NCBI GenBank assembly: GCA_016180435.1
Contig: JACPBG010000001.1
Coordinates: forward strand, 136,358-200,357
DNA from: Candidatus Sungiibacteriota bacterium
GTDB taxonomy: Bacteria; Patescibacteriota; Minisyncoccia; Sungbacterales; HO2-52-23
Direction: 5' to 3'
Length of the DNA: 64,000 bases
Under the pieces are notes generated by a model, which saw only the letters and a program-made list of their open reading frames with translations, searched no databases and was not told the origin of the DNA. The position numbers and the translations under genes were made by a program. The stretch's first letter is position 1; every line of letters begins with the position of its first letter. Positions 16,898-57,292 of this stretch are shown piece by piece.

Positions 16898-18094
16898 TTA
16901 AATCTTAGCTAGTGCCAACTTTAAATCCTCAATCAAATCCAGAGGGTCTTCCCTGCCGATTGATAATCGCAAGGTCCCTTGAGTAATTTCAGCCTTGGCG
17001 AGTTCTTCTTTAGTCAATTGCCCGTGCGTAGTGGTGGCCGGATGAATCACAAGTGAACGCGACTCACCAATATTTGGCGCATGCCAAAAAAGGCGCAATG
17101 ATTCCAGCACGCGTTTAGCGTCACGTCTTCCGCCTTTTATTTCAAAGGCCATGAGTCCCCCAAAACCCTGCGGCATGATTTTTTTATTCTCCCGCGCACG
17201 GGGACCGAAAGCGGGATAAAATACACGCCGAACTTTGGGGTGCTTTGAAAGAAACCGGGCAACCCTAAGAGCGTTTTTCGAGTGTTCCATGACCCGGCCA
17301 AAAAGCGACTCGGCATGCGATAGAAAAATCGCGGCATTGTCCGGAGACATGCAAGGCCCCAATGTCCTAAACCAACCAAGTCGCATGTCGTCAATCAATC
17401 TTTTCTTCCCGACAATGCATCCGCCGATCACCTCGCCATCGCCAAAATATTTTGAGAGCGAATGCCACACGATATCTGCGCCCCGTTTCAAAGGCTGCGC
17501 CAGAGCCGGGGTTGCCAAAGTGTTATCTATAACCAATTTTATGCCATGACGATGCGCGATTTTAGCAATCGGACGCGGATCAAACAAATCAATAAGGGGA
17601 TTGGATGGATTTTCCAACGCAAGAAACCGGGTATTAGACCGAATGGCGCGTTCCCACTCGTCAAGATCATATGGATTTTCCAGGAGAGTAACCTCAATAC
17701 CAAGTTTCGGGAGCAATTCACGAAAAAGATGCAACACGCCGCCATAGAGCCGGTTAGACGAGACAATATGTCCGCCGCCATTCGCGAGGTGCAAAGATAT
17801 TATAAGAATCGCGGACATGCCGGACGAAGTAGCAAGTCCGGCCTCTGCTCCTTCCAACACTGCGACCCGTTTTTCCAAACGATCAACAGTGCGATTATTA
17901 ATACGGCTGTAAATAAAACCCCCTTCCTTTCCTTCAAAAAGGCGTTTGGCTCGTTCAAAAGATCCAAGGGGGTAAGCAGTTACGCGGTCAACCACGGGCC
18001 GAAGTTCGTGATCTTTGAAATCACCTCCTCCATGTATTTCAAGGGTTCGCGGCCTCAATTTCCATAGATTTTTTGCTGAAAGTTTTTTCTTCAT
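16898..18094 (-). CDS. PLP-dependent trans-sulfuration enzyme (MetB/MetZ/methionine gamma-lyase family)
   Basis: YSRINN, SSGMSA, LYGG, ENPSNP, DNTLATP, HSLSKY; start moved to ATG 18094 because the track extension overlaps tRNA sequence. Confidence 0.92.
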   Translation of the reverse strand: MKKKLSAKNLWKLRPRTLEIHGGGDFKDHELRPVVDRVTAYPLGSFERAKRLFEGKEGGFIYSRINNRTVDRLEKRVAVLEGAEAGLATSSGMSAILIISLHLANGGGHIVSSNRLYGGVLHLFRELLPKLGIEVTLLENPYDLDEWERAIRSNTRFLALENPSNPLIDLFDPRPIAKIAHRHGIKLVIDNTLATPALAQPLKRGADIVWHSLSKYFGDGEVIGGCIVGKKRLIDDMRLGWFRTLGPCMSPDNAAIFLSHAESLFGRVMEHSKNALRVARFLSKHPKVRRVFYPAFGPRARENKKIMPQGFGGLMAFEIKGGRRDAKRVLESLRLFWHAPNIGESRSLVIHPATTTHGQLTKEELAKAEITQGTLRLSIGREDPLDLIEDLKLALAKI

Positions 18095-18105
18095 ATCGGT
18101 TTTAA

Positions 18106-18294
18106 TCGCCCCATGGGGAATTGAACCCCGGTTCCTAGGCCCTGCCCTCCCGCCTTTTACCAATCAGCCTCACCGGGATTCGAACCCGGGTTACCAGGAT
18201 GAGAACCTGGCGTCCTAGACCAAACTAGACGATGAGGCCAAAAAGGTGGGAAGGTGAAAGAACCTAGTGTCCTAGGCCACTAGACGATAGGGGC
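18106..18294 (-). pseudogene. Interrupted Glu-type tRNA-like gene enclosing tRNA-Glu(CTC)
   Basis: 5' half GCCCCTATCGTCTAGTGGCCTAGGACACTAGG at 18294-18263; 3' half CCTAGGAACCGGGGTTCAATTCCCCATGGGGCGA at 18139-18106. Confidence 0.75.
18165..18239 (-). tRNA. tRNA-Glu(CTC)
   Basis: GGCCTCA/TGAGGCT acceptor, CCAGG-TTCTCAT-CCTGG anticodon arm, GGTTCGAATCC. Confidence 0.95.
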
Positions 18295-18468
18295 ATAAAT
18301 CGCCAGAATTTTGGAAAAATCTGGACTAGACCGGACTAGACGACAGGAGTATAAAAAATGGGTCGGTCGGAGCCGTAACGTGTTATATCTCATCATATAC
18401 CATCATCTTACAATGAATAATGATAAATGAGGAGTTATTTTGCAGGAGGTCTATATATTCACCGGACC

Positions 18469-18723
18469 TTATTTCTTAATTAAATTAAACAAAACCGCGA
18501 AAAGCCATACTCCCAGAAACGCAATTATATTCCAGATGACCAGGCCGGAAAGAAATGTGCCAAATGTCAAAACGTTGCGGCCCACATCAAGATCAGTGTG
18601 AAGAGCGTACATCATAAATCCAAAACGGATCCCGGGAAATAATGCCACTCCGGTAAAACATATTACATAGACCGCACTAATCCAGGCGGCACTAACTTTT
18701 AAAAGATGCATTGTATTAATCAT
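18469..18723 (-). CDS. Small 2-TM membrane protein (DUF5676-like)
   Basis: VYVICF..YALH..F..GL..W..LFN pattern. Confidence 0.65.
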   Translation of the reverse strand: MINTMHLLKVSAAWISAVYVICFTGVALFPGIRFGFMMYALHTDLDVGRNVLTFGTFLSGLVIWNIIAFLGVWLFAVLFNLIKK

Positions 18724-18803
18724 TATTTTAAAAATATTATTACAGTTATGCTCGACCTTTTGACGATTTTCTCCACCACTAAAATGACGATATAATCCAT
18801 TAA

Positions 18804-18995
18804 TTATTTTTTTACAACTATCCAAATAAGAAAACCTATAACGGCCACTGCCAGGAATCCCGCCAGAATCAAAGAGCCGATCGCCGGGCCAGCCGCAACT
18901 GTCTCTCCGGCATGCTCTTCTACCTCCTCACCCGCGTGCGCGAGAACAACGGAAACCGGAAGTAAAAAAATAATTGCTGAAAAAAATTTTCCCAT
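18804..18995 (-). CDS. Small membrane protein with AHAGEE motif
   Basis: Signal-like N-terminus, VLAHAGEEVEEH, C-terminal TM. Confidence 0.6.
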   Translation of the reverse strand: MGKFFSAIIFLLPVSVVLAHAGEEVEEHAGETVAAGPAIGSLILAGFLAVAVIGFLIWIVVKK

Positions 18996-19016
18996 GTTAT
19001 TAAATGCGTGGGTTTA

Positions 19017-19247
19017 CCCCACACTTAATTTTAACTGCCGCTTTCGTTTCCATCCAAGGCAAGATGAACATCTGTTAAGAAATGCGGGCGTATCACACCA
19101 GCTTACTCTGGACGGCACGAAAACGGCCTGCCCGCCATATGCCCGTCTCACAAGTAAAGGCGTTACTCGAAACTTCACTGCAGTACTGAACCCCGTCTTA
19201 ACTTCATATACAGGCGTATGGCAGGCGGGTTAAAATTAAGTGTGGGG
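19017..19247. mobile_element. MITE-like element family G with a nested insertion at 19127-19229
   Basis: TIR ccccacacttaattttaac/gttaaaattaagtgtgggg; inverted copy without the insert at 43724-43854. Confidence 0.85.
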
Positions 19248-19248
19248 C

Positions 19249-20346
19249 CTACATCGCCGGGGCAAAAAACGGAAATGTAAGAAGACCCCAGAGGATAAAA
19301 ACAATAAATAATATCGCAAAAGTCCTACGCGACATTTCTTTTTTTTTCTTGAAATAATACCAGATAAGAACGGCTGACGGCACAATCAGATTAAACCAGG
19401 CGCCAAGCCAAAAGAGAGGCACCATCTCTTCCACCAAAGGAATCGCCGCTTCAGCTATCCGCTTTCCACCGATATCACTTACAAAGCGATTCAGTCCTTC
19501 ATGAAAAATAGAGCCCTCGTACCACATGTGCCCGAAAATGCCGTTTAATATGATAAAGGACGAAATTCCAACTAATGCCCAACCGGTAATTTTATCTACC
19601 ACGGCTTTACGTTTGATCAATCCACCGGTGGCATTAACCCCTAATATGCCAAGAACCGAAAAGAAGAGAAGGGGTAAAACTCGTCCCAAACCATTTACCG
19701 CCATGTACCAGGCGCCCACGGCAATACTGCCTGTTCCAGCCGCGGCAGTCAATATCAAGTATGTTACGGGATTGGGACAACCTACACCGGCATTGCCCAG
19801 AAAAAAACCCAGAAACAAGGCCTTAAAATAATCAGGCTGTTTCTGAATAAACGACGGCATGCCGGTATAGGCGGGCATCTTGAAACCAATTAAGGCAAGC
19901 TCGGACATGCCGAAAATAAAAGCTGCAACTCCGGCTATAAAATAAAGAATCCGGGTCGCGCTATCCAATCCTAAATATTGGCCCACCATGGCAATACCGG
20001 CTCCATAAACCGAAAGCATGGCAATCAATCCAACCCCAAAAAGTAAAGCTATGGTCAAGCCTTTACGGTAACCCTTGCCCATAGAAAGCGGGACTATAAT
20101 AAAAACCAGAGGCAAAGTGCAGGGCAACACAATATTGGAGACACCTCCGACGAAAGAAAGAATAGTGGTCAGCGTTTTGGCGGGGGAAGTTGCCAGATAG
20201 GTAAGAAAAATTATTATGGCTGCGAGCATAGCAAAAGCCAGCCCAACAAAAAACATTTTCATTTTCTGTGTTGACTGCGGCGATATTTCTTCCGGCAAAG
20301 ACGCGGCTGTTTCTTCCGGCGAAGGTGTGATTGTTTTGTTGTCCAT
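19249..20346 (-). CDS. CcdA/DsbD-beta family thiol-disulfide membrane transporter
   Basis: Multi-TM protein with LPCTLP and GCPNP cysteine pair. Confidence 0.85.
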   Translation of the reverse strand: MDNKTITPSPEETAASLPEEISPQSTQKMKMFFVGLAFAMLAAIIIFLTYLATSPAKTLTTILSFVGGVSNIVLPCTLPLVFIIVPLSMGKGYRKGLTIALLFGVGLIAMLSVYGAGIAMVGQYLGLDSATRILYFIAGVAAFIFGMSELALIGFKMPAYTGMPSFIQKQPDYFKALFLGFFLGNAGVGCPNPVTYLILTAAAGTGSIAVGAWYMAVNGLGRVLPLLFFSVLGILGVNATGGLIKRKAVVDKITGWALVGISSFIILNGIFGHMWYEGSIFHEGLNRFVSDIGGKRIAEAAIPLVEEMVPLFWLGAWFNLIVPSAVLIWYYFKKKKEMSRRTFAILFIVFILWGLLTFPFFAPAM

Positions 20347-34316: not shown

Positions 34317-34397
34317 TCCTAGGCCACTAGACGACGGGGGCATAAATCGCCAGAATTTTGAAGAAATCGGGAATAGACCGAAATAGACGACAGGAAC
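34317..34397 (-). repeat. tRNA-Glu 5' fragment plus upstream flank, diverged copy of 18270-18348
   Basis: GCCCCCGTCGTCTAGTGGCCTAGGA plus shared ataaatcgccagaattttg..tagacgacagga. Confidence 0.85.
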
Positions 34398-57099: not shown

Positions 57100-57180
57100 T
57101 CCTCCACCAAAGACGAATTGCGGATTTTGGGGGATAGCCGTTGCGAGGCGGCTTCCTCTGGCTTGCGCTTTTCTAAAGTG

Positions 57181-57252
57181 TCCTCCCACCTGGAATCGAA
57201 CCAGGACCAACGGCTTAAAAGGCCGCTGCTCTACCAATTGAGCTATGGGAGG
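57181..57252 (-). tRNA. tRNA-Lys(TTT)
   Basis: CCTCCCA/TGGGAGG acceptor, GCGGC-CTTTTAA-GCCGT anticodon arm, GGTTCGATTCC. Confidence 0.93.
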
Positions 57253-57269
57253 ATAAATTTTAGTACGGG

Positions 57270-57289
57270 ACCAATTGAGCTATGGGAGG
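57270..57289 (-). repeat. Exact duplicate of the first 20 nt of tRNA-Lys
   Basis: accaattgagctatgggagg, also at 57233-57252. Confidence 0.9.
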
Positions 57290-57292
57290 GAA

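Follow-up and report, generated by a model that had tools for sequence, protein, structure and literature searches.

How does a complete tRNA gene come to lie inside the anticodon arm of another tRNA gene in a bacterium? The question is raised by positions 18106 to 18294 of the window, i.e. the whole stretch of 64,000 nucleotides analysed here, which belongs to a Candidatus Sungiibacteriota genome (G000; 1.05 Mb, 97.5% complete). A preliminary description had considered the locus as a splicing unit that yields two tRNAs or as a leader of the adjacent trans-sulfuration gene. The reading we favour, with a probability of roughly 0.85, is an event in the DNA: a polar cassette bounded by inverted repeats and carrying a foreign tRNA gene with the same anticodon broke the resident tRNA-Glu(CTC) gene and replaced it.

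Anatomy of the nested locus

In window coordinates and from 5' to 3' along the minus strand, the locus consists of the following features.

18326..18349, minus strand: 5' fragment (acceptor strand and D arm) of the oldest tRNA-Glu gene, similar to the 5' ends of those Glu(CTC) genes that are typical of the family (L003-L011)
18295..18325, minus strand: left end of an older cassette from another repeat family, with no right end found in the vicinity
18259..18294, minus strand: 5' half of the split outer tRNA-Glu(CTC), stopping inside the anticodon loop; 23/25 identical to the outer gene of G001
18240..18258, minus strand: cassette left end, TTCA and then a 14-nt inverted-repeat arm
18165..18239, minus strand: cargo, an intact tRNA-Glu(CTC) without encoded CCA (ARAGORN; Rfam)
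18141..18164, minus strand: cassette right end, a 6-nt spacer, the 14-nt arm and CAGG
18106..18140, minus strand: 3' half of the same split outer tRNA-Glu(CTC); the T stem contains a mismatch, the acceptor strand is shorter by 1 nt, and the first 26 nt of this half are identical (26/26) to the outer gene of G001
16898..18094, minus strand: Cys/Met PLP-enzyme (trans-sulfuration) gene, PF01053, a neighbouring bystander outside the element

The cassette covers 118 bp (18258-18141), from TTCA and the first arm to the second arm and CAGG, and 75 of the 118 nt are tRNA. The presence of a complete tRNA-Glu(CTC) within a split tRNA gene was confirmed by ARAGORN, which calls the inner gene intact, by the Rfam tRNA model (58.8 bits, E 1.4e-11) and by the sequence; in intron mode, ARAGORN calls the nested locus Lys-TTT. 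The linkers pair as described earlier, with 12 Watson-Crick pairs, one G-U pair and one mismatch over 14 positions, and the outer stem has four more pairs than previously given. The reported TTCA bulge is present but lies opposite one C, in a 4x1 internal loop. The region folds at -83.8 kcal/mol (z -3.2), and none of 200 shuffled sequences was equally stable. A promoter scan of positions 17900-18900 found none, with 2.1 expected by chance.

The outer gene had been regarded as a possible Glu(TTC). Its two halves with CA between them are called by ARAGORN as Glu(CTC), and these two anticodon-loop bases have been replaced by the cassette. An intact Glu(TTC) gene, which the preliminary description had named, together with a lack of transcription or processing of the outer halves, as speaking against its reading, is indeed encoded elsewhere in the genome (C11:17597-17674). 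The inner tRNA is the only Glu(CTC) gene found in G000. It shares 56 of 75 positions with the outer gene and the stem changes are paired, which indicates that both evolved separately as working tRNAs; with 29 Glu genes from relatives it is 72-88% identical. In G001, a genome of the same genus, the same outer gene (23/25 and 26/26 bases) has fully paired stems. Against this reference, the T-stem mismatch and the loss of one acceptor-stem base in G000 bear out the earlier suspicion that the outer gene is decaying. The break in the G001 gene comes one base earlier and is due to an oppositely oriented member of another repeat family, with another Glu(CTC) cargo; two insertions in this gene seem to have lost no bases.

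In L006, the older end with its spacer (18295-18325) is found again ahead of a nested Glu(CTC), and the partner arm lies behind this tRNA. Positions 18349-18295, which hold the oldest Glu fragment and this left end of a third repeat family that is complete in L006, indicate that the outer gene itself was once cargo. Judging from these sequences, replacement appears to have happened at least twice at this nest, with 18349-18295 as the earlier layer.

Two further places in the window carry related pieces. The first, at positions 34317-34395 (minus strand), duplicates with 90% identity the stretch made up of the oldest Glu 5' fragment, the old repeat end and the first part of the outer gene; a short reading frame comes next, and a tRNA 3' part is missing. 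At 57180-57290 (minus strand), a tRNA-Lys(TTT) has its own 5' end repeated exactly in front of it, together with a repeat arm.

The cassette ends as a repeat family and their recurrence

The arm belongs to a repeat family of G000. Its 13-mer has five exact and 11 one-mismatch matches in the genome, compared with 0 and 1-2, respectively, in three Markov simulations. The copies are polar, with TTYA ahead of the left arm and CRRG behind the right arm. A scan for polar end pairs yielded 26 in G000, some of the long ones probably due to chance, and two in the reversed genome; it misses the nested Glu locus because the arm of this locus starts with CCT. The end pairs enclose either spacers of 5-80 bases, within protein genes and intergenic regions, or whole tRNAs within split tRNA genes. 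Both ends and both halves of a same-type gene were visible by eye at five of 35 G000 tRNA loci inspected, namely Glu(CTC), Thr(TGT), Gln(CTG), Ile(GAT) and Ser(TGA), and partial remains of nests at several more.

The elements are short, lack an ORF, have terminal inverted repeats and occur in several copies, as MITEs do. Target-site duplications were absent at the tRNA sites, where two bases are lost, and 4-bp repeats were found at some nuclease elements only (see below). Neither an IS110/IS1111 DEDD recombinase (PF01548) nor a Y1 HUH transposase (PF01797; IS200/IS605, REPIN/RAYT) was found in G000.

Short members of the same family lie within protein-coding regions of G000 at C7:58197-58431 and C8:200932-200996. 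At the Ile(GAT) locus (C8:55809-56050, minus strand), three tRNA-Ile pieces are interleaved; in the gene that is called there, the D loop is shortened and the acceptor strands do not match, and no clean Ile(GAT) gene is evident. A tRNA-Ile with the anticodon TAT, which is rare in bacteria, is encoded at C4:94751-94824 and is also a cassette cargo in L053 and L055.

An exact search with the 18-mer end retrieved 31 GTDB and 57 metagenome loci (88, of which 61 are distinct), and the named matches were mostly Patescibacteria. Among the distinct loci, 30 have a partner end and 23 a tRNA directly behind the TTCA end; the remaining ones, with neither partner nor tRNA, were taken as chance matches. 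Counted by eye on related, non-independent genomes, 21 of the 23 tRNA-carrying copies sit in a gene with the same anticodon (isotypes Gly, Met, Ala, Glu, Pro, Lys and Arg), one is unclear (L086) and one does not (L036). The count was made by eye because an automatic score for the alignment of flanks with cargoes told a copy's own flanks only poorly from those of others (own flank strictly ahead in 10 of 37 rows), tRNA loops being alike.

Sixteen of the 23 copies are oriented in sense, with the TTCA end first on the tRNA strand, and seven in antisense. In copies that retain both flanks, the bases lost are CA, from anticodon or D loops. In L090 (627-818) and L106 (500-618), the split gene is a 5S gene downstream of 23S and the cargo is likewise a 5S rRNA gene; four bases are missing at these targets and likewise in the T-loop cases. 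Six two-ended copies (L059, L062, L081, L082, L092 and L097) have short or unrelated spacers, and three of these lie inside tRNA genes, which indicates that tRNA loops are also hit without a matching cargo.

The same nesting in relatives, a check proposed by the preliminary description, was recovered by script for nine Glu(CTC) nests, the present one and eight in other genomes. Nine of the ten Glu(CTC) nests break after TTCT, start with TTYA and end with CARG, over 114-137 bp, while arms, cargoes and outer genes differ; the tenth, seen by eye, ends in CGAG. The arms vary among nests and remain complementary. With a strict pattern, Glu-type left junctions were found in 6 of 62 genomes of the order, and with a two-ended pattern matches were found in 5 of 401 genomes of the class; both are lower bounds because arm families vary. 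In L171, the victim's 5' half matches the cargo of L122 at every base (36/36), and double nesting is seen in L013. Replacement was thus serial.

A conserved stem-loop unit of ~60 nt is another cargo found inside its own homologue (G000 C7:240638-240747; L048, L056, L065, L066, L101 and L104). It is present in single copy in G000, has no Rfam match and is possibly an undescribed essential RNA or DNA site. A dif-like role found no support, as GC skew does not turn at C7:240638-240747. In L172 and L002, the anticodon-stem strands of the outer halves are non-complementary, as if derived from different tRNA genes, and may record one-sided recombination.

RNA processing and other alternatives

If the insert were a new intron or processing stem, with the outer halves ligated to give a second tRNA, one would expect a transcript that can fold as proposed. 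It can, with a duplex of arm and stem at -30.3 kcal/mol, and the retained complementarity of differing arms and the tRNA score of the rejoined outer gene agree with such a unit. Complementary arms, however, are equally expected of a terminal repeat in DNA, and the two loop bases of the outer gene are absent from the DNA: all eight single excisions that leave a 7-nt loop lack both a Glu anticodon and an ARAGORN call. The ends, moreover, occur in both orientations relative to the transcript and lie in D, anticodon and T loops, in 5S genes and in protein genes, and in most other nests the outer genes have additional insertions or halves that do not match. Neither EndA nor RtcB was found in the 97.5% complete genome. 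That no known intron type fits, as stated in the preliminary description, was upheld, since an Rfam scan of 17000-19500 found tRNA only, with no group I model and no ribozyme core (P3-P9) in the insert; the junctions show no bulge-helix-bulge, only the one 4x1 internal loop. Taken together, both orientations, varied targets, lost bases and decayed victims argue for DNA-level events, and a unit acting at the RNA level is highly improbable. The proposal of a leader did not hold either: the ATG of the PLP-enzyme gene at 18094 lies 11 nt beyond the outer 3' half, but homologues occur in 9 of 61 other genomes, at none of these nine loci does a tRNA immediately precede the gene on its strand, and the orthologue in G001 (85% identical) directly follows a protein gene.

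Among DNA-level alternatives, a close precedent is tRNA-dependent lysogeny, in which a whole prophage with a tyrosine integrase integrates at an att core of ~10 bp (Guerrero-Bustamante and Hatfull 2024, PMC10865867). The logic described in the accessible text of that paper is the same, i.e. a tRNA gene is broken and a same-isotype tRNA is carried that, judged here by sequence, would complement it; the cassette could then be the shrunken remnant of an integrative element or prophage, of which the ends and the complementing tRNA were left. In contrast to the system as presented there, the cassette measures 118 bp and has no integrase, no duplicated ~10-bp core, inverted ends and a target loss of 2 bp, and its relatives cover many isotypes as well as 5S rRNA and nest serially (PMC10865867). 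The Glu(CTC) cassettes are uniformly 114-137 bp long, with the tRNA a few bases from both arms, and no integrase remnant of intermediate size occurs among the 61 distinct loci. The two-ended pattern had no match in viral contigs, the one-ended pattern a single chance-like one without partner or tRNA, and the only tyrosine recombinase of G000 is located elsewhere. A remnant of this kind is therefore very unlikely. Likewise very unlikely is a local origin, in which a repeat had landed in a tRNA gene of the cell and then received a duplicate of that gene, without any transfer between organisms. Near-identity of cargo and target close to the break in some nests (L080, L104 and L113) would suit it; against it stand the mere 56 of 75 shared positions with paired stem changes here, and an arm type whose cargoes, in four genomes from two families, are 77-97% alike while the outer genes differ. 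Least probable of all is an assembly artefact from collapsed tRNA repeats. tRNA genes do attract reads of other organisms, and depth rises over 18158-18298. Yet one contig covers 17500-18900 without difference in each of the runs X1 and X4 (two of four runs, two studies), both flagged as possible sources of this very DNA, so that these contigs may stem from the source samples; in run X6 the nest is covered by two overlapping contig pieces, again without difference, and run X8 does not cover it. The same junction in independent genomes with different sequences also speaks against an artefact.

Candidate mobiliser, mechanism and related systems

At C9:8573-8868, a 296-bp element of the form CTTG-arm-GIY-YIG-arm-TGAA lies in the D loop of a tRNA 5' half. 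On its strand it has the same polar ends as the Glu cassette, and its 19-bp arms resemble, but do not equal, those of the cassette. The encoded protein (87 aa) is a single GIY-YIG domain (PF01541, E 5.9e-18) with UPF0213 proteins as nearest solved structures. Homologues were found in 54 of 62 genomes of the order, and 22 of 31 GIY-YIG loci are flanked by terminal repeats of 15-26 bp (score 15 or more) that span 285-324 bp, in comparison to 0 of 300 random spots. Arms of the nuclease elements L157 and L150 are nearly identical to those of short elements in G000, and the arm of L151 is that of the L003 cassette. Several nuclease elements (L131, L142, L146 and L148) have 4-bp direct repeats and not unequal ends; these repeats and the seemingly lossless insertions in G001, set against the loss of two or four bases at the cassettes, indicate that a single simple junction chemistry is insufficient. 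Weak GIY-YIG matches were present in 3 of 72,556 plasmid records, and an atlas search named only generic GIY-YIG clusters.

A function for such proteins is suggested by SsnA, a GIY-YIG nuclease of 94 aa that binds a polar palindrome (NTS) on single-stranded DNA, requires a C after the palindrome, cleaves a few bases upstream of it and is active on transforming DNA; the halves of a split NTS can come together again as a stem that can be cleaved (Chenal et al. 2025, PMC11893778). The available text of that paper notes an IS-like layout, a small GIY-YIG gene flanked by repeats, and its discussion treats such genes as mobile elements in an open proposal; the words 'tRNA' and 'Patescibacteria' do not occur in its main text. 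Both systems share a polar palindrome with TCA before and C after it and a single-domain GIY-YIG of about 90 aa flanked by repeats. The NTS repeats as presented there are self-contained short hairpins with no mobility or cargo shown, whereas a gene or tRNA stands between two arms here, and by inspection the published SRM pattern is not matched, as its first and last positions differ and the loop is far beyond 0-5 nt (PMC11893778).

By analogy with SsnA, the small nuclease encoded between similar ends is the candidate mobiliser of the cassettes. It would bind the stem that both arms form in single-stranded DNA and introduce a nick immediately 5' of TTCA, in the manner of SsnA at NTS repeats; we consider this role slightly more probable than not. 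Arrival of the cassette as single-stranded DNA by natural transformation has a somewhat less than even chance; G000 encodes ComEC, which could take it up, and RNase III. The 118-bp non-autonomous cassette would then be joined into the CA within the anticodon loop of a Glu(CTC) gene active at that time, removing both bases. The old gene would be destroyed and decay, and the cell would survive since the cargo restores the lost function, downstream of the old promoter. The cassette would be kept in the genome because its cargo is now the only Glu(CTC) gene. Maturation of bacterial tRNAs by RNase P, 3' trimming and CCA addition is well established, and the inner tRNA could be freed in this way, perhaps with RNase III acting on the helix of the arms.

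The match between cargo and target may have arisen in several ways. Selection and persistence among insertions directed to loops has an even chance of being the cause and is favoured by the cargo-free insertions in tRNA loops. Guidance by pairing of the cargo with its target is a tentative option, favoured by the near absence of tRNA cassettes at neutral sites, and spread of ready-made nests by homologous recombination is improbable. No empty site or recent transposition was seen in this population. A full homing cassette, in which the single-stranded element pairs via its RNA-gene cargo with the resident homologue while the arm-bound GIY-YIG protein of ~87 aa cuts, inserts and replaces, is doubtful; were the cargo a guide, the cassettes would amount to a selfish system of gene replacement programmed by homology, its mobilising enzyme would rank among the smallest known, and core RNA genes of Patescibacteria would be turned over by it again and again.

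Bacterial MITEs and the REPIN/RAYT systems are short non-coding elements with terminal inverted repeats, many copies and a presumed trans-acting enzyme. The cassettes resemble them in their terminal inverted repeats, their copy number and their nested and in-gene insertions. They differ in the lack of target duplication at tRNA sites, in their unequal 4-nt ends and in a functional RNA-gene cargo matched to the target; moreover, neither a Y1 nor an IS110 transposase was found in G000, and the candidate partner encodes a GIY-YIG nuclease and not a known transposase. [quoted passage not shown] Those introns share with the cassettes the interruption of tRNA anticodon loops and the bacterial group, but the insert described here has no ribozyme core, is mostly tRNA, and its excision cannot restore the host gene. 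Integrative elements leave att-site tRNA fragments beside an intact tRNA gene; here, in contrast, both halves of a different gene enclose the intact one, and there is no direct repeat of its 3' end. In the literature open to the search, nested same-isotype tRNA cassettes were not found to be described.

The destroy-and-replace arrangement is a variant of a non-autonomous mobile element with a self-replacing RNA-gene cargo, operating at the DNA level. Genes of tRNAs and 5S rRNA, usually taken as stable vertical markers, are exchanged here again and again, and in many lineages, by tiny cassettes that become indispensable once the resident copy has been destroyed by them. The cassettes explain tRNA halves and false intron calls in annotations of Patescibacteria. 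Their defined ends, targets and junctions provide a direct test of the mobile-element proposal for repeat-flanked GIY-YIG genes, as worded in the available text (PMC11893778).

Two further arrangements were observed among the retrieved loci. In L007, L009, L016 and L027, a different unit of ~110 nt follows a tRNA-Glu and ends in a copy of the 3' end of this tRNA. In L140 and L154, GIY-YIG elements lie just ahead of the motif GGAAAGTCC, which we take to be part of RNase P RNA, and their arms may stand in for a helix of this RNA.
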